Positions 3,094 to 54,824 of a stretch of DNA of 56,621 nt are shown here, piece by piece. Below the pieces are notes generated by a model that saw nothing but the letters and a program-made list of their open reading frames with translations, was not told the origin of the DNA and ran no database searches. Position numbers and translations under genes: made by a program. This stretch comes from a virus (taxonomy: Duplodnaviria; Caudoviricetes). The stretch is taken from the IMG/VR virus record IMGVR_UViG_3300030451_004511, positions 1-56,621 of that record. One strand, given 5' to 3'. How positions within the stretch are numbered: position 1 is the stretch's first letter; each line of letters begins with the position of its first letter.

Positions 3094-6000
3094 TTATAAC
3101 TGATTATATAAAGGGAGAATACTGTCGAAATCAAAATCTCCAGTTGCTGCGTCCCAAGCCCTTTCAACTGTGGGTCCTAGTGGTCCGACCCAGAAAGGAT
3201 CACCAAAGCGTTTATTTTCCATAAACAATGGCATAGCTAAACCAAACGGACCTAAAACTCCACTTCTATCTATTATTTCAAAACTATATTCACCCCAATC
3301 CATATCGACTGAACGTCTATAGTTTTTATCCTCTGGACTTATTCCTGGTAAAACCCAAGCTAAGCCCACCTTAAATCTTTCGCGTAAATCTAATCCTAAC
3401 ATGGTCAATGGTAAAAGTGTCATAGCACCTAGAAGAAACGGTACAGAGGCAGCAGGAAACCCTTCTTCGTTATATCTGTTTTTACTTTCCCTCCAAAGAC
3501 CTCCAATAATGTTTTTACCATAAGCGTAGAAGAATGATTTTAACTGCCACACTAATGCCCATCTAGGGTCTGAAGCCCATACAGGTCTTTCTGCTGAATT
3601 AGGTCTTACAATAGATTCATCTACAAATTGAAATATTCCTAATCTAATTTTTTCTCCTACTGCGCCTTCAAATGTTTGATTATTAGCAACCCATTGATCT
3701 ACCTCTTGCCAAGTAATATTACCTAACTCTCTTAAATATCGCTGTGAAGTCTCATTGCCTTCTTTAGCTAATTTACCGTGATGTAATACAAACCTACGAC
3801 CCATACCAGAAGCAACAATACGAGTAAATCTTGTAAACCAATCAAGACCTATAACTTTAAAAAACCCTTCACTTACTTTCTTAGATTTGGGGTCTAAAAA
3901 ATCTAACTCACCCGCATTAACATACATAGTGCTTATTGCATCCGATACGGTTGCGCCTACTTCTTTAGCAAAATCTGCAGCCTCTTGTGGGTTTTTAAAA
4001 TAGTTTGCTATCTCTTTTCCAAAATTAGCAAAATTAGATTTTGAGAATTCTTTTGATCTAAGTATTGGACCAGCTAAGTCAGGAGCAGAAGCGAACACAG
4101 CGAAAGATAACAATGTTAAAACATTGAGAGTAACACCTACGTTGTTAACACCTTTTAGTAAAGACCCCATTTCTGGATTAACTTTTCCTAACATCGCAAG
4201 TACAGCGTCTTCTGCATGCTTTTGTTTATTTTTAGGTAACTCTTTGATTAATTCATTTAATTTAAGTGCTCCACCCCTTTTGTTTAATTCGCTTTTCTTA
4301 ATTGTGTTTTGGATATATTTTCTTACTGCAACCTCAGGATCATTTAACAAAGAATCACCCTGTTCATTTAAAATCCCACGCATGACTGAAGTTGGAACAT
4401 TTGCAAAAGCTTCTTGTCTAGATCTTGCAATACCAATAGAAAATTTTTGCAGTGGGTTTTGCGCAGCTATATCAACTTCTGTTTTACCTGGGTCTGCAAT
4501 AATCTCATCTATGAGTTGAGTTGCTTCTTTTTCATCATAAGTAAACTCAACCTCAACAGCTTTCCCTTTTCTAATTACTGTTTTCTTAAACGTTTTACCT
4601 TCGTTATATTCAACAATTGCTTTTATAAGTGCTGCTCTAATGTCTGGGCTGTTTTCTAAAGCAGGTAGATTTATTGATCTAGGAAAGAAGTTTGGAATTT
4701 TTTGTATACTTAATCTGTCTCCAAAACTTTCATTATCAAACATTTCAGAAAAAACTTGTCTAACCGCTCTAGCTTCTGGTGAGATTTCATCATCTGTTAA
4801 AAGGTTATTCTCTGCCTCAAGAAATATTTTTTTAGACTCTGGTGTGATCCTACCATCTACCACAGCTTTAACAATCCCTTTTTCTCGTGCTCTAGCTATA
4901 AGACCTTGGTCTTTTATGTTTGCAGCTTTTTCTACTTCAGATACATAACGGTTAACCTTTGATATCTTCTCTGCTAGGAAGCCAATTTCCCCTTCTGCTT
5001 GAGATTGTTTTAAGAAGAAGTTTGCAAGGGCCACTCCTGGAGGCCCAAAAGACCTTAACAGATTGTCAGCAGGAGCTAAAATTTTTGTGGTATAAGTTGA
5101 GAACTTATCTGTATCCCCTTCTAAAATAGTCTCTGCTTCATTTGCAATATCAAAGAATACTTTTTTCTTACCTACTGTTTCTGCTGCTTTTGGTATGTCG
5201 TCTTCGACCATACTTTTTATGATTGCTTCTCCTTGATTGGATATATTTCGTTTTCTAGTATTTAGAACTTTGTTTTTATATCCACCTACAGTTTCTTGTA
5301 CATAGTCACTAAATGAAGGGTTAACTGTAAACCTTTGTGCTAGCTGTTTGAATTTATTAAATACAAGGCGAAGTTTATTAGCAATTTGTTTAAAGATACT
5401 TTCAGTACCATTGGTTGCTTTTCTTGTTGCATCTAATAAATACACTGCTGTTTGGTCTGCAAACCACTCTTCAAAAGCTGCATGATAATTATCATCTTGA
5501 TATTGAGAAACATCGGTATTAGCTCTAATACCATCAAAAGCAGCTTTTAGTTTTGCATAATTGTTACTACGAGGATTGATGCTTCTTGCTAACTCTTGTT
5601 CAAATACAGAGTGACCTAACTCATGAGCTAGAGCTACCATAGCTAGCCCTTTTTGTTCTTCTGTTGGATTTTGAGGTAAGTTTAAAATAATAAAGTCTTT
5701 GTCATAGTATTTTAAAATACGACCCCCAAGAGGGCGGGTTTGACCATTAGCATCAGGTTCTCTTCCTAATACAACTTGTTGTTGTTTTATAACGTCGTTA
5801 ACAATTTTAGTGCTTCTAATCCTTGAAAGATCAAAACCCTCGTCTGCTGTTATGATTTGTATATCTCGATCAAGTTTAAAATCTTTTTTAATGGTAGATA
5901 AGATGTTGTTTAGGAATGCTTTGTTTCCTATACGTTGTTCTATAACTTTAGAAAAACTTTGTTTAAAAGGTTGGAACTTTTCATCTCTAGGATTAAATAA

Positions 6001-9000
6001 TGGATTAAAGGTGTCAGAAAACTTTTTACCTTTACCTACGCCCCTTTCTATATCAGCTCTAATTCCTGGTAAGTCAGTTGAATCAAGAAGAACAGTTTGA
6101 GTTTGTTGATTTATGTTTCTTTGTACTCTATCTAAGGTTTCAAAATCTTGTTGGATTTTTTGAGAAAGTTCTTTAATTTGAGGTGAAAGATTCTCAGCTT
6201 GATTAACAGCATCTGCAGCTGTTTCCCCCCTTTCTTTCGCATCTCGAACATACTCTCTCATTTGAATTCCGGCAAGACTTTCTAACCTAGCCTGGTTTGC
6301 AGTTATTCTTCTTCGTAAATTAAGAGCTATTTCCCTTTGTCTAACTTGTTCTGGACTTAAATCAAACGGTACTTCTACTTGTGCCCCCGTTTCTCCCCCA
6401 CCACCTTGTTCTTGGGTGCCCGCTGTTTGTGGACCGAAGTCATCAGTATCAAATCCGGGGTCACGTCCGAGGCCCCCCAGTTGTGTAGGAGACATCTCTC
6501 TTTGTCTAGCCTGTTCTGCAAAAGCTTCTCTACCGCTCTGCCCTTCTGTCGCAAGCAGAAAATTAACTCGGTTTCTATCTTTTTGTGCTTCTTGCAATTC
6601 TTGATCAAGTTCTTGTCGAGCCGTTGAATCAGTTTCTTCCTCAAGAGCCGCTTCTAATCTGGGTATTCGCTCTTCTAATTCTATTTGAGCTGCCCTCAAC
6701 CCCTGTAGGGTTTGTTCTCTTTGTTCAAGAGTACGGGGCCTAGACTCAGTTTGAACAGTTTGTGGTGTACCCTCAAACTCTCTAATACCTGCAAGATCCG
6801 CTGCAGTATATGATACACCTCCAGAAGTATATACAATCGCTTGTTGTTCATCTTGTGAGGTAAGTTCTGTTATAGGTTTACCATTCCAAAACAACTGATA
6901 CCCCTCCATAAGTAAACTACTTACAGCTGTACTGTAACCAAGCAAAGCAGTTTCTTCACCCCCCTGTGCCATAGTGCCTTGGGCTTGCGTTCTGTTGTTC
7001 CATTCACGACCAAAGTTAGTTAGTCGTGGCATATTGATACGTTCGGCATCTGTTTGTGGTTTGTTTAAGTCTACTTGTTCTGGAGTAAGAACAGTCCAAT
7101 CAATTTGCTTTCTATTAAATTTTTCTTGGGTCTTATCTGCTTTGATTGAGGCTTCAACCCAACGTGCAACTTCATTTGCAGGAGCTTCGACCATCCCCAC
7201 ACTAGGTAGTCTATATTTTAAAATACCATATTGTGGGGTGCCATCCGCAGCAGTGCCTATTTGTTTAGGTCCAAAAACAGATAAAGAATCTTCTTCTTGA
7301 AGCTCATTAAATTTTTTTAAAAAAGAAGTGGTAAACGCGTCTTGTTCAATCAAGCGTTCCATCTCTTTATGAGGTGCAAAAGCCGTTAAGTTATTCAACG
7401 CTTTTTCTTTCTGTTCTTGATACGCTTTTTGCTCTTTTTCTTTTGTTATAACACTAAGAGAACGCAGCCCTTTCCAAGGATTACCACTCTGACTTAATAT
7501 AGGAGCAGCCTCACTACCAAGTTGATCCCCTGTTACAATTTGTGGTTCTAATTCAGAAAAACTTTCTGCTTGAGAAGAACGTCCAATATCTTCAGTAAAC
7601 TCTCCGTCATCATCAAGTGTTGCTTGAGCATTACCTTCTAACCCAAACTGCTGTGCAATTTCATCTGCAATCTCAATATTTGCAGTTCTTGGGCCAAGTA
7701 TTTCGCTTCTCTCTCTAAGGTGTTGACCTATTTCCTTATGAGATACTTCATAGTTTGCAGAGCCAAAAAGTTCTGACGTACCAAAGAGGCTGTTTGCTTT
7801 TGTAACAACAGCATCTAAATCATTCTCATTTGTTTGTTGATACCAAACTACATTGTTTTGTTTATCTCTAACTTCTACTACAAGATTATCTCCAGGTTTA
7901 CGCTTGTGTACGTAACCTAGATTTCTTGCTAAAAAAGAATCTAGTTTGGTAGTGTTATAAGAATCGCTTTCAACTAAACGTCTGAAGGAAGCTGCTTTGT
8001 TTGGATCTGAAGTAATAAAGATACCTAGTCCCTCTACATCTACAATATTTCGTGGGTCTCCTTTTGCTACTTCATTTATCTTAGTATTAATAGGTGAAGC
8101 TTCTTGTAGATCAACTTGATTTCTACTGTTTTCATCAATCCAAACACTATCTTTTTTATTAGTTGGATCAATAGTTGCATCTAGTTGACCTTCTAGCCAA
8201 GATACAGGTTCAGGGAAAACAGTTTCTATATCGCGTTCCCCATCAATAAAAGCTTGTTGTAGTTCTATATCAGATTCAATATCTTGTTCGTATTGATTTT
8301 TTAAAAACTCCCGTGCTTTACCAAACACTCCTTCAGTTGGATTAGCAATTCTGTTAACACCAGAAGCTACGGTTGAACCAATACCACCAATACCAACACC
8401 ACCGAAAAAACCAGAGAACAATGCTTGTGCTCTATCTAACTTTGCTTGTGATTGTTTGTACTCATCATCAATTGCAAATCGTTGTTGAATACTAATTTCT
8501 TCTTGTAAACTTTCAGTTACCCCTTCAACAGCACCTGTTTTTAACGCACCGCTTACAAGGATGTCCCTTGCTAAACTTCTATTTGCAGCGCCCCCTTTTC
8601 TTGTAGCCATACCATACAAACCTCTTGCAACGATAGCCTCACTACCAACACCAATAGCTGTAAACGGTACACCAATTCCTAAAGATTGGAATGCTTGTAA
8701 TGGGTCTGTCATACCTTGCTCAGCAAAAATACCAAAAGCAGTACCCGCACCTTGTGGGAACTCTTGAGCTGCTGCACCAGAGATAGCACCTAGTTTACTT
8801 AAACTAGCAACTTTCTTCTTTCGATACTCTCTTTGTAAAATGCCAAAAGCACCATTAATTACGTTAGTCTCATCGGTAGTCAAAGCATATGGTAGATTTT
8901 TCTTACCTTGTTTTTTTGCAACTTCGTTTGCCATAAATTTATTTACAGCATCTTTTACTAATTTTTTCTTTGCAACACTTGCAGTTAAACCACCTGCAAT

Positions 9001-9906
9001 AGCAGCACCGGTTATAGGAGCTGTAGCACCTGCTATTGCACCAACACCTGCACCCACCATAGCTGCAGTAATACTTGCGAAAGCAGAAGGAGCGAACTGT
9101 CCTGTAGCACTGAATACTTGATTAACAAACCCACCAAAAGTAGGTTCATCTAAAAACTGTTCAAAGTCTTCAACTGAAGATAATATTTGAGAAGATGCAA
9201 TCTGTGATTGATTACCTTCAAGTATCGCGTCTTCTTTTGCTCGTTCGTCCCCTACAATACTTGCAGCAATACCGCGAAAATAATTTACGTTTGCTCCTAA
9301 GTTTTGTGCACCTGCTGCCATACCCAACTTAAAAACTTCAATTGGATCTTCAGTAGCATAGTTAAAAAAACTACCACGCTCTTGAGCCTCTTGGATCTTA
9401 TCACCTAAAGGTTTTGCCGCTGGCTTCTTTTGATTATTTACAAATAAAGAAATAGCTGCATCAGGGTCTGTAGTTCTAGGGTCTGATGTTTTACCTGATA
9501 TAGTTCTGGCTTGTTCTAATAAATTAGAGTTATATTCTTTTGCTGCATCTGGGGTTTCAAAACGCACCATAGCAGAAATAAGTTGTTCTCTAATTCCTGG
9601 GTCTCCTAAATCTATCTCAGCATCTGAAGAGATACCCACATTACGAGCCACAAAATTAATATAATTGTCTGTAGGATTATTATCGCTAGGAGGTGCGAAT
9701 CGAGTTATAGCACCACGAATTGTATTAATATTATGACGCACGCCATAGTTTTCTAGAACTTTATCAGCGGCTCTTAAGCCATATAAAGGGTTTTCAAATT
9801 GAGCATAACCACCATCATCAGCGCCGGTTTGTCCTACCCAATTATTGTTTGCGTTAAATCGAACGTTTAACCAGTTGTTATTTTTGTATCCAGTTTGTTG
9901 CGACAC
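3094..9906 (-). CDS. Large internal virion (ejection) protein: N-terminal lysozyme-like domain, zincin-like HELGH motif, ejection-protein-like C-terminus
   Basis: 2270 aa; NNWLNVR..F.NP.YG.RA..RFAPP.DNN.T.NYI; AHELGH...EEWFAD; WQLKSFF near C-terminus; position after the adaptor genes. Confidence 0.7.
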   Translation of the reverse strand: MSQQTGYKNNNWLNVRFNANNNWVGQTGADDGGYAQFENPLYGLRAADKVLENYGVRHNINTIRGAITRFAPPSDNNPTDNYINFVARNVGISSDAEIDLGDPGIREQLISAMVRFETPDAAKEYNSNLLEQARTISGKTSDPRTTDPDAAISLFVNNQKKPAAKPLGDKIQEAQERGSFFNYATEDPIEVFKLGMAAGAQNLGANVNYFRGIAASIVGDERAKEDAILEGNQSQIASSQILSSVEDFEQFLDEPTFGGFVNQVFSATGQFAPSAFASITAAMVGAGVGAIAGATAPITGAAIAGGLTASVAKKKLVKDAVNKFMANEVAKKQGKKNLPYALTTDETNVINGAFGILQREYRKKKVASLSKLGAISGAAAQEFPQGAGTAFGIFAEQGMTDPLQAFQSLGIGVPFTAIGVGSEAIVARGLYGMATRKGGAANRSLARDILVSGALKTGAVEGVTESLQEEISIQQRFAIDDEYKQSQAKLDRAQALFSGFFGGVGIGGIGSTVASGVNRIANPTEGVFGKAREFLKNQYEQDIESDIELQQAFIDGERDIETVFPEPVSWLEGQLDATIDPTNKKDSVWIDENSRNQVDLQEASPINTKINEVAKGDPRNIVDVEGLGIFITSDPNKAASFRRLVESDSYNTTKLDSFLARNLGYVHKRKPGDNLVVEVRDKQNNVVWYQQTNENDLDAVVTKANSLFGTSELFGSANYEVSHKEIGQHLRERSEILGPRTANIEIADEIAQQFGLEGNAQATLDDDGEFTEDIGRSSQAESFSELEPQIVTGDQLGSEAAPILSQSGNPWKGLRSLSVITKEKEQKAYQEQKEKALNNLTAFAPHKEMERLIEQDAFTTSFLKKFNELQEEDSLSVFGPKQIGTAADGTPQYGILKYRLPSVGMVEAPANEVARWVEASIKADKTQEKFNRKQIDWTVLTPEQVDLNKPQTDAERINMPRLTNFGREWNNRTQAQGTMAQGGEETALLGYSTAVSSLLMEGYQLFWNGKPITELTSQDEQQAIVYTSGGVSYTAADLAGIREFEGTPQTVQTESRPRTLEQREQTLQGLRAAQIELEERIPRLEAALEEETDSTARQELDQELQEAQKDRNRVNFLLATEGQSGREAFAEQARQREMSPTQLGGLGRDPGFDTDDFGPQTAGTQEQGGGGETGAQVEVPFDLSPEQVRQREIALNLRRRITANQARLESLAGIQMREYVRDAKERGETAADAVNQAENLSPQIKELSQKIQQDFETLDRVQRNINQQTQTVLLDSTDLPGIRADIERGVGKGKKFSDTFNPLFNPRDEKFQPFKQSFSKVIEQRIGNKAFLNNILSTIKKDFKLDRDIQIITADEGFDLSRIRSTKIVNDVIKQQQVVLGREPDANGQTRPLGGRILKYYDKDFIILNLPQNPTEEQKGLAMVALAHELGHSVFEQELARSINPRSNNYAKLKAAFDGIRANTDVSQYQDDNYHAAFEEWFADQTAVYLLDATRKATNGTESIFKQIANKLRLVFNKFKQLAQRFTVNPSFSDYVQETVGGYKNKVLNTRKRNISNQGEAIIKSMVEDDIPKAAETVGKKKVFFDIANEAETILEGDTDKFSTYTTKILAPADNLLRSFGPPGVALANFFLKQSQAEGEIGFLAEKISKVNRYVSEVEKAANIKDQGLIARAREKGIVKAVVDGRITPESKKIFLEAENNLLTDDEISPEARAVRQVFSEMFDNESFGDRLSIQKIPNFFPRSINLPALENSPDIRAALIKAIVEYNEGKTFKKTVIRKGKAVEVEFTYDEKEATQLIDEIIADPGKTEVDIAAQNPLQKFSIGIARSRQEAFANVPTSVMRGILNEQGDSLLNDPEVAVRKYIQNTIKKSELNKRGGALKLNELIKELPKNKQKHAEDAVLAMLGKVNPEMGSLLKGVNNVGVTLNVLTLLSFAVFASAPDLAGPILRSKEFSKSNFANFGKEIANYFKNPQEAADFAKEVGATVSDAISTMYVNAGELDFLDPKSKKVSEGFFKVIGLDWFTRFTRIVASGMGRRFVLHHGKLAKEGNETSQRYLRELGNITWQEVDQWVANNQTFEGAVGEKIRLGIFQFVDESIVRPNSAERPVWASDPRWALVWQLKSFFYAYGKNIIGGLWRESKNRYNEEGFPAASVPFLLGAMTLLPLTMLGLDLRERFKVGLAWVLPGISPEDKNYRRSVDMDWGEYSFEIIDRSGVLGPFGLAMPLFMENKRFGDPFWVGPLGPTVERAWDAATGDFDFDSILPLYNQL

Positions 9907-19795: not shown

Positions 19796-21441
19796 TAAGC
19801 ACTCATCGATGATTTATGTTTAGCACCTTTAGTTAAATATTTTAACTTATCTCTCCAAGATGGAACATGCTCCGGTCGTTCATAGAACGTTGCAAATTCT
19901 GTCATCATTAAACCAATCCACGCCAAGGCATCGACTTGGTCATCATGGGCTCCATTTGGAAAACGTAAAAGTTCTGCAACCATGGTTCCAGTCCAAACAG
20001 CGTCCTTTGGAAAGTATACCATACCTTGTTGCATTCTACCCTGAATTGCACGCGCTCTCGCTTCTTTATCTCTTCGACCTACTTTTAGGTCTTTGAAGTA
20101 TGCTTCGCTTAATCCTCGTTCCCTAGTACGTTTCTGCAAGAAGGGGCCCAAGGCCATTTCAATGTGACCTCTCTCTATGCCTACTATACCCGGGCGCCAA
20201 GTTTCATACAAGTCTAAAATTTGTTCAACTAACTCGAAGCCATCGTATTTACCGCGAACGACATCAACAACATATAAATTGTCATATTCATCAACACCGA
20301 CAACAATACCAACTGAATAATCGTTCCGGTCACGCTGTCCGATCGCAAGGTCCCATGCACAATAGTAATTAAGTTCTGCAGTATCAATTTCATCATATTC
20401 GTAATAACGGATCATGTCTCGGCTAAAGTAATCGCCTTCGTCGGATACTGGATTCTGTTGATACAGAGCAGACCAATCGCGTGGACCGATGGCTTTCCTT
20501 ATCTGCTCGAGCGCATCTACATTATATCTTTCGGGGTGTAAACTTTCACCCTGTTTCCTAAAATTTTCATCGATTTCTGCAATCGCTGGGTACCGAATCA
20601 CTTCCCATTGGTCAGCACCATCTTCGGCTTGCTTTAATAACCTACCCGCCAAATCATCATCGTGCCATCTTGTAAGAATTACAAGTATGCCACCCCCAGG
20701 TGATAGACGTGTATACGCGGTTGATGTATACCAATCCCAGGTCGCTTCGCGGTTGTTATCCGACTCTGCATCTTCACGGTTTTTTACCGGATCGTCGATT
20801 ACCAAAACGTTTGCACCTTTACCCGTAATACCACCACCCACACCAGCGGCTACATAACCACCGCCTTGGGTCGTTTGCCATGATTCTACTGACTGAGAAT
20901 CCTTATCGAGTCTAGATTTTTCGAACACATTTTTATATACTGGTTCTCTAAGTAGTTGACGCACTTTTCTTGAGAAACTCATCGCAAGAGAACCTGAATA
21001 CGAACAACTGATAAACTCGTGATCGGGGTGTCGACCCAAATGCCAGGCAGGGAATGCCACACTGGCCAATGTAGATTTACCATGTCGAGGCGGCATAAAG
21101 AGCATCAATCTAGGTGATTCTTTATTAGCTACTTGTTCGCTAAACTTTTCGAGCCGCTGACAAATGTCTTTGTGTACCCAGCCTGCTAAATAATCAGGAT
21201 TAAAACGTTCAACAAATGGGAGTAACCTTTTACGTGATAAGATTCTTTTTGCTAGTTCTTGTTCCGCTTTTACTTGTGCGGATAAGTCTACTCGTTTCTT
21301 TTGATCCTGTTCAGACTTCGACTGGGGCTCGGGCACTTTTTCAACCTCGTCTGCCCTACAATAGACACATATATCATCGACCAAAATAAGCGTTTCGGGA
21401 TAGAGGCCTTTACAGCGTTTACACTCAGTCTTGTTCGTCAT
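19795..21441 (-). CDS. terL: Terminase large subunit
   Basis: Walker A MPPRHGKS, Walker B VIDDPVK, nuclease AWDLA...HDDQVDA. Confidence 0.93.
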   Translation of the reverse strand: MTNKTECKRCKGLYPETLILVDDICVYCRADEVEKVPEPQSKSEQDQKKRVDLSAQVKAEQELAKRILSRKRLLPFVERFNPDYLAGWVHKDICQRLEKFSEQVANKESPRLMLFMPPRHGKSTLASVAFPAWHLGRHPDHEFISCSYSGSLAMSFSRKVRQLLREPVYKNVFEKSRLDKDSQSVESWQTTQGGGYVAAGVGGGITGKGANVLVIDDPVKNREDAESDNNREATWDWYTSTAYTRLSPGGGILVILTRWHDDDLAGRLLKQAEDGADQWEVIRYPAIAEIDENFRKQGESLHPERYNVDALEQIRKAIGPRDWSALYQQNPVSDEGDYFSRDMIRYYEYDEIDTAELNYYCAWDLAIGQRDRNDYSVGIVVGVDEYDNLYVVDVVRGKYDGFELVEQILDLYETWRPGIVGIERGHIEMALGPFLQKRTRERGLSEAYFKDLKVGRRDKEARARAIQGRMQQGMVYFPKDAVWTGTMVAELLRFPNGAHDDQVDALAWIGLMMTEFATFYERPEHVPSWRDKLKYLTKGAKHKSSMSA

Positions 21442-21946
21442 TGGCGGGCTCTAAATATTTGGTATCTGCTCCTGCAAGTTTTAATAGTTCCGCATCTGAT
21501 AGTCTTTCTAATTGTTGTACCTTATCTACATTGATATTTATTTGAGTTGCGTTTTCAGGCATAAATAGACCGTGGAGCTTGCATAACGAATCGACAACAT
21601 TCTTTTCTTCGGTCGCGGTCGCGGATTTGCGGTGCGCTTCTAAATACATACTGGTAGCTGTGTTCTTATCGAACTTAACTTCTTCGCGCATTTCATTACG
21701 CAAATACTGTAGTGCCTTTTGTACTTTGTCAGTTTTGAAGAGCGAATAAACACGGTCAACATCTCTGTACCCCGCAGCACGGCCCGCGGCCGCTTTGGTC
21801 ATTCCCCGTAAGTGAAATAAAATCAATCTTTCTTCTTGAACCGAAAGCTCGTTCAGATGTAAACCTGCATAGGGTAGGTGAGATTGAAACTCAGCTCTAT
21901 CCTGCTCGGTAACTTCTGTAGGTCTGTCCTCGTCTAATAAACGCAT
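21425..21946 (-). CDS. Putative terminase small subunit
   Basis: HTH-like GMTKAAAGRAAGY; directly upstream of and overlapping terL. Confidence 0.6.
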   Translation of the reverse strand: MRLLDEDRPTEVTEQDRAEFQSHLPYAGLHLNELSVQEERLILFHLRGMTKAAAGRAAGYRDVDRVYSLFKTDKVQKALQYLRNEMREEVKFDKNTATSMYLEAHRKSATATEEKNVVDSLCKLHGLFMPENATQININVDKVQQLERLSDAELLKLAGADTKYLEPANDEQD

Positions 21947-22152
21947 GTAATTTGAATTATATTAGAAAGATCCTACATTTGTCACTCGAAATTTTTTTGT
22001 GAAAATTTTTTTTGAAAAACACTTCACATATCACTGATCCATTCTCTCCCCCCTCGTCTCTAGCACACCCCCCTCTCCCTTTTTACATTTTGGAACCTTG
22101 TTTCTATTTTTCTAGCCTGGAACCTTGTATCGATTTCCGTGTAGATTGTTTC

Positions 22153-22186
22153 GTCTCGCTCCCACCGTCGCTCGACAGTTGTCTAT
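22153..22186 (+). promoter_or_regulatory. Hairpin-box element H1
   Basis: GTC-TC-GC-TC-CCACCG-TC-GC-TC-GAC then AGTTGTCTAT, upstream of the SD/ATG at 22214. Confidence 0.6.
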
Positions 22187-22213
22187 CATGTTTAAATAAT
22201 ATAGGAGATATAT

Positions 22214-22477
22214 ATGACTAATACAACATACTTAACAGTTACTAAAGGACTCTATGGATTCATGGTTGTTCAAGTCTGGACAGAACTAAATAGTGAGGAT
22301 GAAAATGACATCTTCGCTGAAAGAGAAATAGTACATACAGAACGCCTAGGCGGAGACATGCACTATCAGTTCGATACCGAAGAAGAAGCAATACTTAACT
22401 TCGAGAACTGGGCAGGAGATAACTGGGAAGACACTCCAAGGGCTTGGCTAGAAGGAAAAGACTACCCAATGTCCTAA
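22214..22477 (+). CDS. Early hypothetical protein (acidic)
   Basis: 87 aa; AGGAG SD. Confidence 0.7.
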   Translation: MTNTTYLTVTKGLYGFMVVQVWTELNSEDENDIFAEREIVHTERLGGDMHYQFDTEEEAILNFENWAGDNWEDTPRAWLEGKDYPMS

Positions 22478-22481
22478 GAAA

Positions 22482-22514
22482 GTTTCGCTCCCCTGTCGCT
22501 CAACGGCTGTACAT
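22482..22514 (+). promoter_or_regulatory. Hairpin-box element H2
   Basis: GTT-TC-GC-TC-CCCTG-TC-GC-TC-AAC then GGCTGTACAT. Confidence 0.6.
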
Positions 22515-22583
22515 GGGGAGTAAATTAACTATCTACTATCATCTGATATTAGATAATAACCGGCGAAAGCCAAGGAAATCGAT

Positions 22584-22862
22584 ATGAAAATCGTAAATAA
22601 CACTGTTAAATTATGTGGTAAAGCTACCCGCATAGTTGTAGATAACAGCCTTAAAGTAGCTAAATATGTAGCAGTTAAGTCTGTCCCTGTAACCCAGAGA
22701 CTAGCAACTAACTTCGCAGAAGGATATAACAACAATCAAGTTGTTCTACCTAAACATCCTAAATCTACTTCCTCAGAAGAACCTGGGGAGGTAGGTATCT
22801 GTAACATCTGTGAAGGACCATACGTTGATGGCCACTGCACTACATACAAGTGTTGGAGGTAA
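22584..22862 (+). CDS. Early hypothetical protein with a C-terminal Cys4 motif
   Basis: CNIC...HCTTYKC; AAGGA SD. Confidence 0.65.
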   Translation: MKIVNNTVKLCGKATRIVVDNSLKVAKYVAVKSVPVTQRLATNFAEGYNNNQVVLPKHPKSTSSEEPGEVGICNICEGPYVDGHCTTYKCWR

Positions 22863-22864
22863 TT

Positions 22865-23008
22865 ATGAGTAGAGATGCATTAATCATATTCGCAGTCATC
22901 TTCATCGGCTTTGTTATGCCAGCCTGGCTATACACGATGTATCAAATCCATCCTGAATATGGATTCTTTATTACAGATGACTTAATCCGTCGAGCATTCG
23001 GAGGATAA
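22865..23008 (+). CDS. Small membrane protein (47 aa, not in the ORF track)
   Basis: MSRDALIIFAVIFIGFVMPAWLYTMY...; GGAGG SD. Confidence 0.6.
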   Translation: MSRDALIIFAVIFIGFVMPAWLYTMYQIHPEYGFFITDDLIRRAFGG

Positions 23009-23010
23009 TC

Positions 23011-23196
23011 ATGAGAGATAATCTATTAACTCTTACTTACAAAGCTAAGCACCCCATCAAGGGGCGCTTAGTCTTTTTTATAACAGACGTCTGTTTTTAC
23101 ACGGCAATCATAGTAGGATTCATACTATCATTGCCAATTACGTTACCCATACTATTCTTTCTATGGATAACCAAAGACTTTAGGTCTGATTTATAA
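23011..23196 (+). CDS. Small membrane protein
   Basis: Hydrophobic C-terminal half; GGAGG SD. Confidence 0.6.
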   Translation: MRDNLLTLTYKAKHPIKGRLVFFITDVCFYTAIIVGFILSLPITLPILFFLWITKDFRSDL

Positions 23197-23206
23197 GGAG
23201 ATAATT

Positions 23207-23407
23207 ATGAAGTGGTATTTTTACCTCATCCTCGCTCCTCGCATGTTACTTCTTCGTCCATTCGAATCCTTCAAAGATTTAAGGAACGTTTGGAGAAGAG
23301 GGCTTCAAGCTGAATTCACACGCGAGTATCGAGCTATCCGCAAGGATGACATTATGCCTTTCTGGTACTGTGTCTACACAGCACTAGGCAAATGGGATTT
23401 ATTATAG
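23207..23407 (+). CDS. Early hypothetical protein
   Basis: 66 aa; AAGGAG SD. Confidence 0.6.
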   Translation: MKWYFYLILAPRMLLLRPFESFKDLRNVWRRGLQAEFTREYRAIRKDDIMPFWYCVYTALGKWDLL

Positions 23408-23419
23408 GAGTTTCATATC

Positions 23420-23450
23420 GGGGGGCTATCACAGTCCCCCCTCCTTCTTT
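23420..23450 (+). terminator. Possible intrinsic terminator
   Basis: GGGGGCT-ATCAC-AGTCCCC hairpin followed by a pyrimidine tract. Confidence 0.4.
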
Positions 23451-23548
23451 CACTCGGACAGGGTGTGCTTACTACTATCATCACGAGCGGAGCGAGTGTG
23501 CGACAGTGTGCGACGGACCCTGGACAGCGGTCCACGTGTGCTGTCATG

Positions 23549-23848
23549 AAAATGTTCCATCGGTTCCACGTAAAAACCCCCTTGTGGAACCAACTAATGG
23601 AACCACGTTTTCATCAGTAACCGTGCGGGCTGGCAAGGCGTGCGGAGTACTCTGGTTCCACGGTTCCATCAAAAACAGGTTATGTTATAAAACAGAAGTC
23701 GACCGTCGACCGTGAACCATGAATTTTTGTTAACCAAAAAGTACTGGAACCAATGGAACCAAACTCGCAAACGCAGTAACCACGCGGAATATTCTGGTTC
23801 CACGAGCCATTTTTTACGTGGAACCAAGCGGAACCAGTGGAACATTTT
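23549..23848. repeat. Palindromic array of 12 GGAAC(C)/(G)GTTCC iterons; candidate replication origin
   Basis: 7 forward and 5 reverse copies, mostly in pairs; outer arms are imperfect reverse complements. Confidence 0.65.
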
Positions 23849-23849
23849 T

Positions 23850-23884
23850 GGTCACCTACGTCCCTCCGGTGACCGGCTATTCAT
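23850..23884 (+). promoter_or_regulatory. Hairpin-box element H3
   Basis: GGTCACC-N11-GGTGACC then GGCTATTCAT, upstream of the SD/ATG at 23912. Confidence 0.5.
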
Positions 23885-23911
23885 AAGAATTAAATAATTT
23901 AGGAGATAAAT

Positions 23912-24100
23912 ATGAAGAAAGAAGAAATAACTTACGCTTATTGCGAGGCATCAAACTGCCCAAACGCTCTTCACGACGAAAAGCACGGCAAAGCCCTCAA
24001 CCCAAGCTACTGCCTCGATGTAAATTCTACCACCGAGGAGCAGCACGAACCAAGATACTTCTGCCTACCTTGCGCTTACAGAAGCGGGGCAGTAGTTTAA
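23912..24100 (+). CDS. Small Cys-rich (zinc-finger-like) early protein
   Basis: CEASNC...CLPC; AGGAG SD. Confidence 0.65.
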   Translation: MKKEEITYAYCEASNCPNALHDEKHGKALNPSYCLDVNSTTEEQHEPRYFCLPCAYRSGAVV

Positions 24101-24109
24101 AGCTCAGTC

Positions 24110-24145
24110 AGCCACCCTTCTCCGGCGGGGTGGCTGGGTGTTTAT
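24110..24145 (+). promoter_or_regulatory. Hairpin-box element H4
   Basis: AGCCA-CCCTTC-TCC-GGCGGG-G-TGGCT then GGGTGTTTAT. Confidence 0.65.
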
Positions 24146-24170
24146 GTTAAGTAAAAATATAGGAGATATT

Positions 24171-24332
24171 ATGAAAATTAGTGAATGTGATGCATGTGGT
24201 GAAGTAAGAGAGTTAGAAGAGTTGGTAGTTGAAAGTGAGATGTATGGAAGTTGTAGGGAATATAATTTAGGTTTTGTGTGCCAAAAGTGTAGAGAAGATA
24301 AAGTTATTGTTAATGAATTATTGGAGGGGTAA
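24171..24332 (+). CDS. Small zinc-finger-like early protein
   Basis: MKISECDAC...CQKC; AGGAG SD places the start at 24171. Confidence 0.65.
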   Translation: MKISECDACGEVRELEELVVESEMYGSCREYNLGFVCQKCREDKVIVNELLEG

Positions 24333-24595
24333 TGATGTGTAGAGTTAAATTTATTAGAGAGCCTAAGGAGCCCAATGATGTATATATTGGGCGAGGCTCT
24401 AAGTGGGGCAATCCCTATCGCATCGGCGTGCATGGCTCGCGCGATGAGGTGATTGCCAAATATAGAGATTATCTCGAGAGCAATGAGCATTTAAAGTGCT
24501 CATTGCCTGAGCTAAGAGGTAAGAATTTGGTTTGTTATTGCAAGCCAAAAGCTTGCCATGGTGATGTATTAATGGAATATCTAGCCAACTCCTAA
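24332..24595 (+). CDS. DUF4326-family protein
   Basis: VYIGRGSKWGNPY...LRGKNLVCYCKPKACHGDVL. Confidence 0.85.
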   Translation: MMCRVKFIREPKEPNDVYIGRGSKWGNPYRIGVHGSRDEVIAKYRDYLESNEHLKCSLPELRGKNLVCYCKPKACHGDVLMEYLANS

Positions 24596-24617
24596 CGGAG
24601 ATTGGCTGGGTGTTTAT
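24583..24617 (+). promoter_or_regulatory. Hairpin-box element H5
   Basis: AGCCAA-CTCC-TAAC-GGAG-A-TTGGCT then GGGTGTTTAT. Confidence 0.65.
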
Positions 24618-24714
24618 GTGTGCAAAAATTAAGATAGGTAGTTGTATTTACGCTCTGCTAGCAAGAGAAGTGTTCCAAGTACAACAATACTAAAATTAAT
24701 CCAGGAACCGATTC

Positions 24715-24749
24715 AGCCACTAGCTACCGCTAGTTGGCTGGATGTTTAT
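24715..24749 (+). promoter_or_regulatory. Hairpin-box element H6
   Basis: AGCCA-CTAGC-TACC-GCTAG-T-TGGCT then GGATGTTTAT. Confidence 0.65.
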
Positions 24750-24929
24750 ATTTTAAAAGGTTGAAGTCTCACCGGCTCCTTAAGAGAAGGATAAAGCTTT
24801 GTTTAAAAGGTGGGCCGAGGGGTTACTAAATCCTAGAGTAACTCAGCGAAACTCAGCATGAGAAGGTGGAGGTTTAAATCCCTCAAGATTTCCGATCGAG
24901 CCGACGTTAAGGCCCGGGTAAATTATTCT

Positions 24930-24964
24930 AGCCACTCCCTAACGGGAGTTGGCTGGATGTTTAT
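24930..24964 (+). promoter_or_regulatory. Hairpin-box element H7
   Basis: AGCCA-CTCCC-TAAC-GGGAG-T-TGGCT then GGATGTTTAT. Confidence 0.65.
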
Positions 24965-24988
24965 ATGAACTAAAAATTGGAGATTGAT

Positions 24989-25345
24989 ATGAATCGTCGA
25001 GAGTTTTTAAAATTACTAATTGGTAAACAGGCGCAAGCCAAGGAGGACATTATGTCATTTACCACAAACTATGCCCCATCGCAGGGCTACTCGCTGGTTG
25101 TCACACCAAAAGGCAACCTTATGTTAAACGCTACCAGAATCAACCCTGGTGCTGACAAAAGTCCAGACGCAAGAGCAACCTTGCCGATGGATCAATTGTT
25201 TGAATACGCTTACGTCAAACCAAATGGCGCTGTCGTAATCAAACAAGTCGGGCAGATGGAATTTACTTTCTATCCTGCAGAGAGAAAAGCTCAAGCTGAC
25301 ATTGTTCAGCCTGAGATCTCTCTCGACTCAGCGTCTAACGCTTAA
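24989..25345 (+). CDS. Early hypothetical protein with two in-frame starts (24989 and 25052)
   Basis: GGAG before 24989 and AAGGAGG before 25052; followed by a terminator. Confidence 0.7.
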   Translation: MNRREFLKLLIGKQAQAKEDIMSFTTNYAPSQGYSLVVTPKGNLMLNATRINPGADKSPDARATLPMDQLFEYAYVKPNGAVVIKQVGQMEFTFYPAERKAQADIVQPEISLDSASNA

Positions 25346-25350
25346 CCTCT

Positions 25351-25373
25351 GGGGGCTTCGGCCCCCTTTTTTT
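25351..25373 (+). terminator. Intrinsic terminator
   Basis: GGGGGC-TTCG-GCCCCC followed by T7. Confidence 0.92.
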
Positions 25374-25454
25374 AATATCTTTTAATAAGACACACTGCGT
25401 GTGTGTTTTTTATTTTGGTCCAGAGGGGTGTGCGCAGTCTATGTGCTCAGAAAA

Positions 25455-25487
25455 GTTTCGGTGCTCCGCACCTCAACGGTTGTTTAT
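25455..25487 (+). promoter_or_regulatory. Hairpin-box element H8
   Basis: GTT-TC-GGTGC-TCC-GCACC-TC-AAC then GGTTGTTTAT; lies after a terminator and before the SD/ATG at 25514. Confidence 0.7.
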
Positions 25488-25513
25488 AAATAATAATATT
25501 CCATGGAGGTTAT

Positions 25514-25657
25514 ATGGAAGAAAAATATATTGACGAGTCAATTCGTCGAGAAGCGAGTGATTATTTGTACATACCTGAGTTGAAGAACTCAGAAGTGTTG
25601 CAAGTAATTGCAAATAGAAACCAACACTCTAAACCACAAGGAGGTAAACATGAGTAA
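25514..25657 (+). CDS. Small hypothetical protein (47 aa, not in the ORF track)
   Basis: MEEKYIDES...; GGAGG SD. Confidence 0.55.
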   Translation: MEEKYIDESIRREASDYLYIPELKNSEVLQVIANRNQHSKPQGGKHE

Positions 25658-26432
25658 AGGTGCAGATATATTCGATCCAGCAGATGTTGAGATCGAGATC
25701 GATATGGCGAACGGTGAAAACGGTGAGTTACTGCCAACGCAGGACACTCCCGAAGAAGCGTTCATTCCCGATACCATCGGTGATCCAGTAGGTTCTGACA
25801 ACAGATCCGAACAAGATGACATCGTTCTACCTGACTATTTCTACAAGAAGTATCAGCTAGATAACGAAGGTAATCCTACGTTCAATGCTGGCAGAGTCGG
25901 CGGTATTATGAAAATCTTTGACGAAAAACATGGTACGCCAATGACATTCAACAAAGACAACGAAGAACTTGCTGAGAAAGAGCAAGCATACTTCGAAGGT
26001 CAAGTTGATTCGATTGTTCTTGGTATGTCACCATTACTTGAAGTCGAGCCTCAAGCAACTGGCATCAACTTTTTACAGTTGGCTACCAGAACTTGGGCTG
26101 AGTTTGTATCTGTTGTCTTTGAATACAAAGAATCAATGGCAGAATCAGATCCAAGCAAAGAGATACCTGATTGGCTCTGCGAGCGTGAAGACAAAATGCT
26201 TCAGCTCGGTAGGAAGTCAAGATTGTTATCTTCTGCATTGGAAAAGCTCGATGATAAGTTTGGGCTCAAAGATGTCTCAATCAAAGCAGATAGAGTAAAA
26301 ACTCAAGTCGAGCTAAGATTGCAAAGACTTGCGGAGTGGAACTACAAAAATCTGGTAGACACTTCCAAGTTCAGCGCTCGTGTTATGACGCGTGATGCAA
26401 ATAGCGCGATGGACGTATCGGACGTAGCATAG
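25650..26432 (+). CDS. Acidic hypothetical protein
   Basis: Start MSKGAD after AAGGAGGT; 260 aa. Confidence 0.75.
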   Translation: MSKGADIFDPADVEIEIDMANGENGELLPTQDTPEEAFIPDTIGDPVGSDNRSEQDDIVLPDYFYKKYQLDNEGNPTFNAGRVGGIMKIFDEKHGTPMTFNKDNEELAEKEQAYFEGQVDSIVLGMSPLLEVEPQATGINFLQLATRTWAEFVSVVFEYKESMAESDPSKEIPDWLCEREDKMLQLGRKSRLLSSALEKLDDKFGLKDVSIKADRVKTQVELRLQRLAEWNYKNLVDTSKFSARVMTRDANSAMDVSDVA

Positions 26433-26450
26433 TCTAGGTTCGCATCTACC

Positions 26451-26487
26451 CACCAACCTACTTACTCGGAGTTGGTGGGGTGATGTA
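26451..26487 (+). promoter_or_regulatory. Divergent hairpin-box element H9
   Basis: CACCAAC-N13-GTTGGTG then GGGTGATGTA; weaker box match. Confidence 0.35.
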
Positions 26488-26667
26488 AAAATTGTGGGGA
26501 GTAGGGGTTGGTTACCGAACACCCAGCTGGGAGATGAAAAGGTCCCAGCACCGATATAAGGACGAGGGTTTTATTAGTTATTTTTATCCCTTCATTGACG
26601 AGCGTGGTTCACTCCAGTCCGCAAACGAACCACCTATAATTATTTTTTAACACTCGGAGGTGTGCAC

Positions 26668-27532: not shown

Positions 27533-27548
27533 CACACAAGGAGGTGTG
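27533..27548 (+). promoter_or_regulatory. SD hairpin with GGA hexaloop (CsrA-type site)
   Basis: CACAC-AAGGAG-GTGTG; related sites at 26650, 28090 and 28295. Confidence 0.6.
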
Positions 27549-27550
27549 TT

Positions 27551-28011: not shown

Positions 28012-28107
28012 TTGTAGGTGAAATCGCAACGTAAAAAAAGGAAGGCCTGTCTAGCCTTGTGTTTCTCTTTCTCTTTAATTTAGTAAATTCACACAAGGAG
28101 GTGTGCT

Positions 28108-28293: not shown

Positions 28294-28313
28294 ACACACG
28301 AGGAGGTGTGCAC

Positions 28314-33049: not shown

Positions 33050-33238
33050 ATGTCTAAGCCACTTAAACATCAACAGGTTATGAAACTTTGTGTGATGACT
33101 GAAGAAGATGTCTTCGGTGATAAACAAACTCTAGCAGAGATGATGGAGATTGTTGCCGATGCTATCAAAGAAAAAAGGTTCTATTTTGAACTAATCAATC
33201 CACCAAAGGAACATGGGAAACAAGAAAACAGTAGCTAG
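33050..33238 (+). CDS. Hypothetical protein
   Basis: 62 aa, in the operon. Confidence 0.55.
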   Translation: MSKPLKHQQVMKLCVMTEEDVFGDKQTLAEMMEIVADAIKEKRFYFELINPPKEHGKQENSS

Positions 33239-33686
33239 AAACAAAGGTATATCCTCATCGCCTAAAAGGTTTTTGCAATATCTTTTATGGCAATCTAAAT
33301 CAAGACGCACTGCTCAAGGTTATGAATACACGTTAACCATTGATGAAGTTTTAGATATTTATAACAAACAACAAGGACTCTGTGCCATTTCAGGCGTAAA
33401 GATGACACATTTAAAAGGACAGGGACACCTCCATAAAAATATGTCAATCGACCGTATAGATAACAATAAAGGTTATACGCAAGATAATGTGCATATTGTA
33501 TGTTATTACATCAATATGATGCGACGCACTATGAATTTGGATGAGTTTAAAGATGTATGCAAAGAAATTACTACATTTACTTTACTCAAAAATTATTGTT
33601 CTATTGATGAACTAAAAGAAAAATCTATAAGTGAGTGGTGGAGAATCCAACCTGTCATAAACATGACGGTTGATGCAAAAAAATGA
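33213..33686 (+). CDS. HNH-like endonuclease
   Basis: GLCAISG...SIDRIDNNKGYTQDNV..VC..IN. Confidence 0.75.
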   Translation: MGNKKTVARNKGISSSPKRFLQYLLWQSKSRRTAQGYEYTLTIDEVLDIYNKQQGLCAISGVKMTHLKGQGHLHKNMSIDRIDNNKGYTQDNVHIVCYYINMMRRTMNLDEFKDVCKEITTFTLLKNYCSIDELKEKSISEWWRIQPVINMTVDAKK

Positions 33687-49360: not shown

Positions 49361-49376
49361 ATGTTAATAAATTTAT

Positions 49377-49652
49377 TCATCTTAAATTATACACGATTAT
49401 GCTGACAATACCGGATAAGATAATCCAGAAGGCTCTTTCAAAGGTGCTAATCCCTTTAGAGTTTACAATAGCTTTTTGTTCGACAATTTCTACCCTATCT
49501 TCGAGTCTATCCATTCTTGCGATGAATCTATCGTTTTGTTTCAATACAGTAGTTACTCTCTCTTCAATCCTTGCAATTGCAATGACAGCATCCGAAAGTT
49601 TGTCTATTTTAGTTTCTAATTTTTCTAGTCTGTTTGATACTTCGCTACTCAC
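49377..49652 (-). CDS. Coiled-coil protein with a C-terminal TM segment (lysis-associated, holin-like)
   Basis: Adjacent to the endolysin; FWIILSGIVSIIVY. Confidence 0.5.
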   Translation of the reverse strand: MSSEVSNRLEKLETKIDKLSDAVIAIARIEERVTTVLKQNDRFIARMDRLEDRVEIVEQKAIVNSKGISTFERAFWIILSGIVSIIVYNLR

Positions 49653-50250: not shown

Positions 50251-50265
50251 AATTTACTCCTTATT

Positions 50266-50730: not shown

Positions 50731-50744
50731 AAATTAATTATATA

Positions 50745-51029: not shown

Positions 51030-51031
51030 AT

Positions 51032-53320: not shown

Positions 53321-53330
53321 ATTTTTCTCC

Positions 53331-54524: not shown

Positions 54525-54526
54525 AA

Positions 54527-54823: not shown

Positions 54824-54824
54824 A

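Follow-up and report, generated by a model that had tools for sequence, protein, structure and literature searches.

Structure-conserved hairpin-plus-box elements in the early region of a KPP25-like marine podovirus: possible promoter cassettes

The DNA studied here (the window) is the whole of the IMG/VR virus record IMGVR_UViG_3300030451_004511, 56,621 bases with a G+C content of 39% and an estimated completeness of 96%. Our subject is a family of eight hairpin-plus-box elements, e1 to e8, all on the + strand of its early region (22153-25487). The phage is a KPP25-like marine podovirus and the record is near-complete: in a portal comparison, Pseudomonas phage KPP25 and its kin were the nearest named phages, at about 38% identity. 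Structural genes occupy the - strand (1-21946 and 45780-56615) and include those for the large terminase, portal, major head protein, tail fibres and a 2270-amino-acid (aa) virion protein, with the small terminase gene at 21425-21946 (- strand). Early and replication genes run from 22214 to about 43400 on the + strand, among them those for an ATPase, a family A DNA polymerase, a DUF5906 primase, an exonuclease and a helicase. A large-terminase search yielded 449 related IMG/VR contigs at 79-98% identity; relatives are cited below by L number. A blastn search of a phage collection with the early region as query gave no match, and two portal relatives, MW202615 and Acidovorax AP1, were dropped as comparators because their layout differs. 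The sole hint of a host, a prophage-like relative in a gammaproteobacterial metagenome-assembled genome (MAG) whose large terminase is 50% identical, points weakly to the Gammaproteobacteria.

The elements share a ten-base box, RGNTRTHYAT, which starts on the + strand at 22177, 22505, 23875, 24136, 24608, 24740, 24955 and 25478. A typical copy (e5-e7) consists of an outer 5-bp stem, an inner 5-bp stem, a TAAC or TACC loop, the returning inner arm, a bulged T and the outer arm. GG-N-TGTTTAT follows the stem at once, and after about 14 AT-rich bases come a TAGGAGAT-like Shine-Dalgarno (SD) sequence and an ATG. The other copies vary this plan. Element e1 (22153..22186) is a weak inverted repeat with GTC/GAC ends, tandem TC/TC mismatches and the box AGTTGTCTAT, and it precedes the first early gene (ATG at 22214). 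Element e2 (22482..22514; box GGCTGTACAT) begins 4 nt past the stop codon of that gene (22214-22477) and has an ATG 69 nt further on. Both e1 and e2 contain a direct repeat of TCGCTC, about 10 bases apart, and may be recognised by sequence. Loops of 10-11 nt distinguish e3 and e4: e3 (23850..23884; box GGCTATTCAT; ATG at 23912) has a 7-bp stem and an 11-nt loop and lies directly behind a GGAACC array, while e4 (24110..24145; box GGGTGTTTAT; ATG at 24171) has a stem of 8-9 bp. The loop of e5 (24583..24617; box GGGTGTTTAT) holds the stop codon of a DUF4326-like gene (24332-24595). Stems of 5+5 bp with a bulged T are found in e6 (24715..24749; loop TACC; box GGATGTTTAT), which belongs to repeat family D13, and in e7 (24930..24964; loop TAAC; box GGATGTTTAT; ATG at 24989). 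Finally, e8 (25455..25487) reads GTT-TC-GGTGC-TCC-GCACC-TC-AAC, followed by the box GGTTGTTTAT and an ATG at 25514, and lies behind two canonical terminators.

An SD sequence and an ATG stand behind six of the eight copies, in keeping with the original prediction that the box is usually so followed. From box end to ATG these six (e1-e4, e7 and e8, in order) measure 27, 69, 27, 25, 24 and 26 nt, so that five of six fall within 24-27 nt; in 11 copies from relatives the distance is 17-34 nt. The remaining two, e5 and e6, are followed by 97 nt and 180 nt without a convincing open reading frame (ORF). Where an upstream stop codon exists, the element starts within 4-18 nt of it. Each of the eight window copies has T as the first and C as the last coding-strand base of its loop, which places G...A on the template strand. 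There four of the loops read C-GGA-G at 25455, C-GTTA-G at 24583 and 24930, and C-GGTA-G at 24715, just as had been claimed for the bottom strand.

How far does this family exceed chance? RGNTRTHYAT occurs 27 times in the window, compared with 13.2 +/- 3.8 times in 100 shuffles, none of which reached 27. A box directly behind a perfect stem of at least 5 bp occurs six times, against a mean of 0.35 and a maximum of 2 in 100 dinucleotide shuffles; the six sites are e3-e7 and one chance-like - strand site at 36292. The original prediction of eight clear copies in one orientation was borne out, with the box on the + strand in every copy. Its claim of an inverted repeat in each clear copy held for e3-e8, which fold, and less well for e1 and e2, which barely do. 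We judged hairpin strength by DNA folding z-scores of either strand together with RNA energies. Elements e4-e7 (24110, 24583, 24715 and 24930) form strong hairpins, with z-scores of -4.2 to -5.5 (-4.2 and -4.4 for e4) and RNA energies of -13 to -17 kcal/mol, and the hairpins at 23850, 25455 and 26451 are moderate. By nearest-neighbour energy there is almost no structure at 22153 (z-scores of +0.6 and +1.5) or 22482 (about -0.8); these two pair solely when tandem TC/TC mismatches (GA/GA on the bottom strand) are allowed.

We built a covariance model from a seed of three window copies and five copies from relatives. Among the window copies outside the seed, it recovered 24110 (E = 8e-6), 25455 (E = 1e-4) and, weakly, 23850 (E = 0.45); 22153, 22482 and 26451 were not recovered. 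Elsewhere in the window it gave just three weak - strand matches (E = 2.7-9.3), all outside the early region. Across 21 distinct copies from the window and its relatives, 95.4% of stem cells pair, compared with 59.3% in shuffles (0 of 500 reach the observed value) and 20-44% when the partners are slid. All ten stem pairs show changes on both sides. Fitting the 21-copy alignment to the covariance model biases it towards structure, and the margin is large. The earlier statement that stems vary while pairing is kept is upheld by these ten covarying pairs; it does not extend to e1, whose counterpart in L015 has nearly identical letters, no covariation and the box GGTTGTTTAT. A search of the whole window against Rfam gave no match at E up to 1, and neither a tRNA nor a tmRNA was found.

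The element at 26451..26490 (+ strand), at the end of the early region, had been listed as a weak ninth copy. It has a 9-bp stem and a different box, GGTGATGTAAA, and the covariance model passed over it. The L025 counterpart retains this second kind of box (AGATGTAAAT), which makes the element a type of its own, and the claim that it is a weak copy was dropped.

Window-type copies are present in three related lineages: L014-L019 and L025, with weaker copies in L010, L034, L041 and L044. Counterparts of e7 with compensated stems lie in L014, L015 and L025. The distance from hairpin to box, 0 nt in the window, is 2-3 or 5 nt in close relatives. All lineage variants have only GG in common, placed right behind the hairpin or separated from it by TA, TCTTA or TTTTA; the distance between loop centre and GG is 12-13.5 nt in e4-e8 and 17-18 nt in the variants of L002, L005, L082 and L101. 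In KPP25 itself, gp26, gp27 and gp31 are each preceded by a GC-rich hairpin whose loop is GGA or TCC (24021-24041, 24322-24342 and about 26850 of the KPP25 record), with TTCAT following at 7-17 nt and ATG at 20-29 nt. The hairpin before gp31 has the same GTCAC/GTGAC stem as e3, occupies the matching place and also lies behind a repeat array. The GGA loop is on the coding strand in two of the three KPP25 hairpins.

The elements also mark joints at which the early region has been rearranged. One contig of run X2 lacks exactly 24732-24946 (215 nt; 24731 is joined to 24947), and the 20 letters shared by both sides identify an e6/e7 crossover. L101 has one element, e5-like in its left part and e7-like in its right part, directly before the gene that follows e7 in the window; its homologue of the window's first early gene has been relocated behind the repeat array. 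The early region of L082, whose large terminase is 98% identical, measures 1.8 kb compared with 3.7 kb in the window. Two non-coding modules on the + strand (24618-24714 and 24750-24929), bounded by e5, e6 and e7, are present in some strains and absent from others. Their RNA folding z-scores are -2.7 and -2.2, they match no tRNA or Rfam family, and they may be small phage RNAs. We conclude that the cassettes are recombination points for the gain and loss of small early modules, and that the family is real, structure-conserved and tied to early gene expression and early-region plasticity.

The placement of the elements relative to terminators bears on their function. A terminator-like hairpin (23420..23450, + strand; 8-bp stem, six T in the next 12 bases) closes the first early unit; e3 comes after it and after 400 nt of arrayed GGAACC-type sites. 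Two tandem canonical intrinsic terminators (25351..25415, + strand; starts at 25351 and 25387) consist of a GC stem with T7 and a second stem with T6, have 9 and 10 T among the 12 bases past the stem, and end about 40 nt upstream of e8. Element e1 precedes the first early gene, within the divergent region. Three other lineages have conserved nothing but the element between GT-rich terminator remnants and the same gene. Some elements also stand between genes inside transcription units. A promoter role fits the fact that elements start transcription units right after canonical terminators. The elements themselves have GG directly past the stem and just 3-6 T in the next 12 bases; two of the eight pass a simple terminator scan, solely because the stem extends into the box. 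Judged by the sequence directly after the stem, where a U-rich tract is missing, they are not ordinary terminators.

Two kinds of sequence upstream of the elements deserve mention here. The array of GGAACC/GGTTCC-type sites just upstream of e3 (23540..23845) has at least ten sites, and two further sites, TGGAACCTTGT, at 22091 and 22118 upstream of e1 are kept in L015. Relatives have lineage-specific arrays at the position upstream of e3 (GTGGAACA in L101 and L034, TGTTACA in L082), and KPP25 has a repeat region there with units of about 60 nt that contain GTTACGAAATTTTTT. These arrays look like lineage-specific regulator-binding sites or an origin with iterons. The second is a sigma-70-like site at 21979..22006 (+ strand), TTGTCA, 16 nt and TG-n-GAAAAT, which matches the consensus at 9 of 12 positions and has the TG. 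It overlaps an AT-rich block (21990-22040) between the small terminase gene and e1, whose TTTTTTTGTGAAAATTTTTT core is kept in 14 relatives from several lineages; the -35 hexamer of the site is not. Site and block may act as an early promoter of host type with an extended -10, as an upstream element serving the divergent promoters, or in packaging or replication.

What, then, do the elements do? All copies are oriented with the genes, their spacing to SD and ATG is constrained, they are restricted to the early region, and diverged relatives have counterparts at matching positions; together these features point to a role in gene expression. We consider a promoter function of some kind reasonably probable. 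Within it, our working interpretation, put forward tentatively and with the balance slightly against it, is that the elements are composite early promoter cassettes read by the host polymerase. From the pattern described above we infer promoter activity, a start site, a reading enzyme and a role for the hairpin. Each cassette would combine a GC-rich hairpin, whose structure is kept while its letters drift through compensating changes, with a sequence-conserved box, GG-N-TGTT-YAT, followed by an AT-rich leader, an SD sequence and a start codon. The box region would be the core promoter of each early gene or transcription unit. Because no phage RNA polymerase could be recognised (see below), host polymerase would be the default reader, with YAT and the next three bases (TATAGT, TATTAT, TATATT or CATTAT) serving as a -10-like hexamer. 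Transcription would start about 7 nt past the hexamer and leave a short leader with the SD sequence. The hairpin would insulate the promoter from upstream transcription or attenuate that transcription, and may aid promoter opening; the repeated cassettes would double as the recombination points for small early modules. The YATNNT hexamer itself argues for this interpretation. Among the 15 window-type copies of the 18 listed, A at position 2 and T at position 6 are each found in 15 of 15, and in the window copies A is found in eight of eight and T in four of eight.

Several observations weigh against host-read cassettes. There is no -35 hexamer in the elements at 16-18 nt from YATNNT. At -16/-15, the TG of the box misses the extended -10 register by one base, and the invariant GG would lie at -19/-18, where sigma-70 has no known need for it. 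The original prediction that a hairpin formed in single-stranded template DNA replaces the -35 is conjectural. In L005 and L006 the box is 17 nt from the ATG and the predicted start falls inside the SD sequence, and variants of the L082 type (hairpin, TCTTA, GGT...) lack any -10-like hexamer between hairpin and SD. A plain sigma-70 promoter leaves unexplained both the compensating hairpin and the template G...A loops in all eight copies; the near-absence of folding energy at 22153 and 22482 speaks against a rigid structure, as do the varying hairpin-to-box distance in close relatives and the coding-strand GGA loops of KPP25. The proposal that these are structure-defined early promoters is hence only partly sustained: confinement to the early region and placement at unit starts agree with it, and the variable hairpin-box distance, the two poor folders and the KPP25 loops do not. 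The promoter consensus applied, that of sigma-70, is an assumed one, the gammaproteobacterial MAG being the only hint of the host.

Other promoter assignments were also considered. Sigma-70-like sites placed by a scan on e1 and e3 would start transcription inside the SD sequence. We also compared the box by eye with the consensus sequences of sigma-54, sigma-E and Bacteroidota-type promoters and rejected all three, as key positions are not kept across copies. Metatranscriptome contigs of low depth on this stretch (three from X19, one from X20), of which one crosses e8 and one the 26451 hairpin, were not used, since they show neither starts nor ends and may be DNA carry-over.

Our PHROG and Pfam scans of 45 window ORFs gave no match to an RNA polymerase family; the same PHROG library matches N4 gp15 and gp16 strongly. 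Searching the complete record in all six frames with PF00940 and phrog_414 also gave no match. The PF00940 controls were likewise silent, so that phrog_414 alone is informative; in N4 it finds gp15, gp16 and the divergent virion RNA polymerase (vRNAP), and in KPP25 it finds nothing. A DxDxD-type motif is present in just four frames, those of an ATPase, a 202-aa protein without a PHROG match, a tail-fibre protein and the 2270-aa virion protein. At the level of profile and motif searches, we could confirm that no RNA polymerase of the T7/N4 type or the two-barrel type is detectable, as the original prediction had stated.

The 2270-aa virion protein (3094..9906, - strand) received particular attention as a hidden T7-like polymerase. 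It has an N-terminal lytic transglycosylase/lysozyme, an HExxH...E metallopeptidase motif and a hydrophobic, membrane-like C-terminus, and its nearest Atlas clusters are LPD39, LPD22, LPD38, MuF_C and an internal core protein. Across its family the HExxH...E motif is invariant, positions 503 to 1428 hold no invariant residue, and an invariant Asp pair is missing. A profile of the family (26 members) compared with PDB sequences found no polymerase, coiled-coil noise only. We rejected it as a T7-like enzyme on the lysozyme N-terminus, the HExxH...E motif and the noise in the PDB profile comparison; the protein also has unassigned domains. Its sequence features fit a 'polyvalent' ejection protein, which would make it the only large candidate for an injected factor. 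Iyer et al. describe the N4 virion polymerase domain as one module of polyvalent proteins and note that some LPD domains look enzymatic (PMC5512222). Two smaller virion proteins were set aside as polymerases: one of 667 aa looks largely disordered and matches no structure, and one of 659 aa matches the virion-associated protein of PDB 8jov.

Hairpin promoters of the N4/LUZ7 type provide the closest likeness in form. The coding strand of the natural N4 promoters has stem-T(T/C)C-stem followed by TTAT, TTTT or TTT and by GG, and the N4 P2 template oligonucleotide has been studied with a GTP start (PMC13492108). In N4, positions -17 to +1 are conserved for recognition, the loop has a sheared G:A pair, contacts are made to -8G, -9C, -10G and -11G, and the junction from duplex to single strand lies at -5/-4, the base of longer stems being melted (PMC4496689). 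In LUZ7, nine early starts are a G 13-14 nt downstream of the hairpin centre, and in the middle promoters a hairpin of at least 6 bp with a loop of 3-4 nt precedes a G by about 15 nt (PMC9163698). Promoters of the N4 type need supercoiling and SSB for their hairpin to extrude, and their activity resists rifampicin. The window elements resemble both in being GC-rich inverted repeats with variable stems kept by pairing, with C-GNA-G-type template loops, a GG about 12-14 nt from the loop centre and then an AT-rich leader and SD, and in occurring as several copies of one orientation in the early region (three in N4, nine in LUZ7, eight in the window). Measured from the loop centre, transcription starts at 11 nt in N4 and at 13-14 nt in LUZ7, and the GG, a predicted start site, lies at 12-13.5 nt in e4-e8 and at 17-18 nt in the variants of close relatives. 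Compared with the N4 hairpin (5-7-bp stem, 3-nt loop with sheared G:A pair, C-G closure), e8 is an exact counterpart, GGTGC-GGA-GCACC on the template; in e5-e7 a C-GNNA-G tetraloop caps the 5-bp inner part of a bipartite 10-bp stem, e3 and e4 have loops of 10-11 nt, and e1 and e2 barely pair. The differences are that the window has no virion or other T7-like RNA polymerase; that its stems are bipartite (5+5 bp with a bulge, or with a 2x2 internal loop) and its loops mostly at least 4 nt; and that a conserved TGTTYAT follows the GG at a hairpin-GG spacing that varies among close relatives.

Could the elements work in the same way? A template hairpin extruded in supercoiled DNA, formed by the inner 5-bp stem and the G...A loop, would then be read by a non-host enzyme or an injected factor starting at the GG, which would make the box the first ten bases of the transcript. 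Candidates for the reader would be some unrecognised domain within a virion protein, for example the 2270-aa protein, or an injected factor that redirects host polymerase. Taking GG as the start site agrees better with the N4/LUZ7 geometry than taking the box as a -10 does. The first G of the box is 12-13.5 nt from the loop centre in e4-e8, GG is common to all lineage variants, and a start there leaves the SD sequence within the mRNA in L005 and L006, unlike a start set by the -10-like hexamer. Element e8 has the same 5-bp stem, TCC loop and template heptamer GCGGAGC as N4 P2 and P3, with 5 nt and then GG. Pyrimidine mismatches are confined to the coding strand, and hence appear as G.A on the template, and the template loops match the GCGNAGC and GCGNNAGC mini-hairpins (PMC13037366). 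That the N4 polymerase domain is itself a module of polyvalent proteins (PMC5512222) also favours such a reader. Set against this, no search found a T7-like polymerase although phrog_414 catches the divergent N4 vRNAP, and the 2270-aa family shows neither an invariant residue in 503-1428 nor an invariant Asp pair. N4-type enzymes measure from the loop, and here the distance from loop centre to GG is inconstant, 12-13.5 nt compared with 17-18 nt in close relatives. Elements e1 and e2 hardly fold, the loops are mostly of at least 4 nt and not 3, GGA is on the coding strand in two of three KPP25 early hairpins, and the conserved TGTTTAT is unexplained as transcribed sequence. We regard this explanation as unlikely, and it is equally doubtful that a widespread group of KPP25-related marine podoviruses uses N4-like hairpin promoters that start at GG without a T7-like polymerase.

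A serious rival, somewhat less improbable in our estimate than template-hairpin promoters, places the function in RNA, as attenuation or processing; it goes beyond what the original prediction had proposed, as does the comparison with terminator-plus-promoter cassettes made below. The elements would lie inside polycistronic early transcripts from one or a few host-type promoters, such as that at 21979-22006, the conserved sigma-70-like site with an extended -10 upstream of e1. The hairpin would be a weak terminator, an attenuator or a 3' stabiliser, and the box the target of an RNase E-like endonuclease or a translational enhancer. The elements start, on the sense strand, 4-18 nt past the upstream stop, which in e5 is even held in the loop; two copies pass the simple terminator scan, and the variants of relatives with a perfect 9-10-bp stem and TTTTA or TCTTA resemble ordinary terminators. 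UAAC is a member of the UNAC tetraloops, and the leader past the box resembles AU-rich translational enhancers. Against an RNA role, e8 and e3 are downstream of terminators, two of them strong in the case of e8, where read-through is unexpected and a promoter is needed, and the GG right past the stem with its poor U-tract speaks against termination. RNase III needs about 20 bp, and the stems of the elements are too short for it. Strand asymmetry cuts both ways. G.U-type pairs on the sense strand exceed A.C by 5 to 1 (a later count on the 21 copies gave six G.U or U.G cells), which favours RNA, with the reservation that four of these cells fall in one bulge-junction column of related copies. 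Pyrimidine-pyrimidine mismatches number seven cells on the sense strand and none on the other, thus giving G.A on the template, occur also in e1, e2 and e8, and as C.U and U.C would weaken an RNA helix. As the copies are related by descent, these counts are not independent, and we discarded wobble asymmetry as a test of strand because the G.T excess favours the sense strand and the pyrimidine mismatches the template. It is very unlikely, by comparison, that the elements are DNA sites without a part in transcription (for binding of a replication or nicking protein, or as a cruciform target of an endonuclease VII-like protein) or a selfish mobile repeat. Copies do mark recombination breakpoints, an endonuclease VII/HNH-like gene lies at 33213-33686, and iteron-like arrays adjoin e1 and e3; orientation with the genes, constrained spacing to SD and ATG, limitation to the early region and matched positions in diverged relatives all speak for a different function.

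The nearest functional analogues are the promoter-early stem-loop (PeSL) cassettes of T4-type phages. PeSL cassettes are likewise intergenic and placed before small early ORFans (PMC2839356; PMC4122927). In each of them a stem-loop is joined to an early promoter, with SD and ATG at the end, just as the stem-loop in the window lies between stop codon and SD/ATG, and recombination between copies deletes, inserts and swaps modules (PMC2839356). PeSL promoters have a sigma-70 consensus with -35, -10 and AT-rich upstream sequence, whereas the window has only the -10-like YATNNT without a -35; PeSL stem-loops have been shown to terminate, whereas the window stems are followed by GG and a poor U-tract. 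The hosts of the cassettes differ too, T4-type myoviruses in one case and a KPP25-like podovirus in the other. With intrinsic terminators the elements share a GC-rich sense-strand stem-loop just past a stop codon and, in some relatives, TTTTA after the stem. They differ in having 3-6 T in 12 bases compared with 9-10 in the canonical terminators of the region and a flank that is conserved in sequence and not merely U-rich, and e1 has nothing upstream to terminate. RNase III processing sites lie between the early genes of T7. They resemble the elements as hairpins between consecutive early genes, with one ahead of the first gene; the window stems, at about 10 bp, are too short, and a conserved single-stranded box follows them. 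The elements are therefore closest to PeSL cassettes in role and to N4/LUZ7 hairpin promoters in look, and they lack one defining feature of each, the sigma-70 consensus of the former and the virion polymerase of the latter. In the literature, taken without supplements, we found no account of such elements in KPP25-like or marine podoviruses, and the phrase 'hairpin promoter' in N4 papers only.

Further features of the record were noted in passing. The early gene at 24332-24595 (+ strand), whose stop codon lies in the loop of e5, encodes an 87-aa protein that matches phrog_464. By eye it contains a WGNP motif, which we take to be typical of DUF4326; N4 gp12 carries a DUF4326 annotation. A 260-aa early protein (25650-26432) was found in all lineages seen, at 48-84% identity and without a family match. 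Its AlphaFold model, a helical bundle with a mean predicted local distance difference test (pLDDT) score of 73, had no PDB fold match at E<=0.001, and comparison with N4 gp15 showed no likeness. KPP25 gp29 (263 aa) sits at the corresponding position. The 260-aa protein is a candidate regulator of the next transcription stage. Past it, an inverted repeat, GTGGTTC...GAACCAC (26604-26640), is followed after 1 base by a perfect TATAAT, about 28 nt before the first middle gene (ATG at 26668), and may serve as the operator of a host-type promoter where early genes give way to middle ones. Four middle genes have their SD sequence within a small hairpin, (C)ACAC-nnGGAGG-TGTG, directly 5' of the start codon (26650-26667, 27533-27550, 28090-28107 and 28296-28313), which may serve translation control. 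The ends of the record, 1-754 and 55825-56578, repeat each other at 90-93% identity inside tail-fibre-like genes; they are either two paralogous fibre genes or a circle closed by assembly across strain variation.

To our knowledge, promoters defined by DNA shape and not by sequence occur only in N4-like phages, whose giant polymerase, an injected protein, reads them. An abundant marine lineage (449 IMG/VR contigs) without such a polymerase has this architecture in front of its early genes. Were the elements to be N4-like hairpin promoters, early transcription would be carried out or directed by an unrecognised injected activity. It could reside in a domain of the 2270-aa protein or be a factor enabling host polymerase to initiate at an extruded hairpin, and hairpin-dependent transcription would then have been solved a second time, independently. 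More broadly, use of hairpin-linked promoters by host polymerase or by a new injected factor would be new transcription-initiation biology. The other outcome would be that these podoviruses evolved their own version of the T4-type promoter-plus-stem-loop cassette, one that also drives the shuffling of early genes. In either case the elements show where the early transcription units and the recombination joints of these uncultured phages lie, and they form a compact set of 35-nt sequences open to testing.

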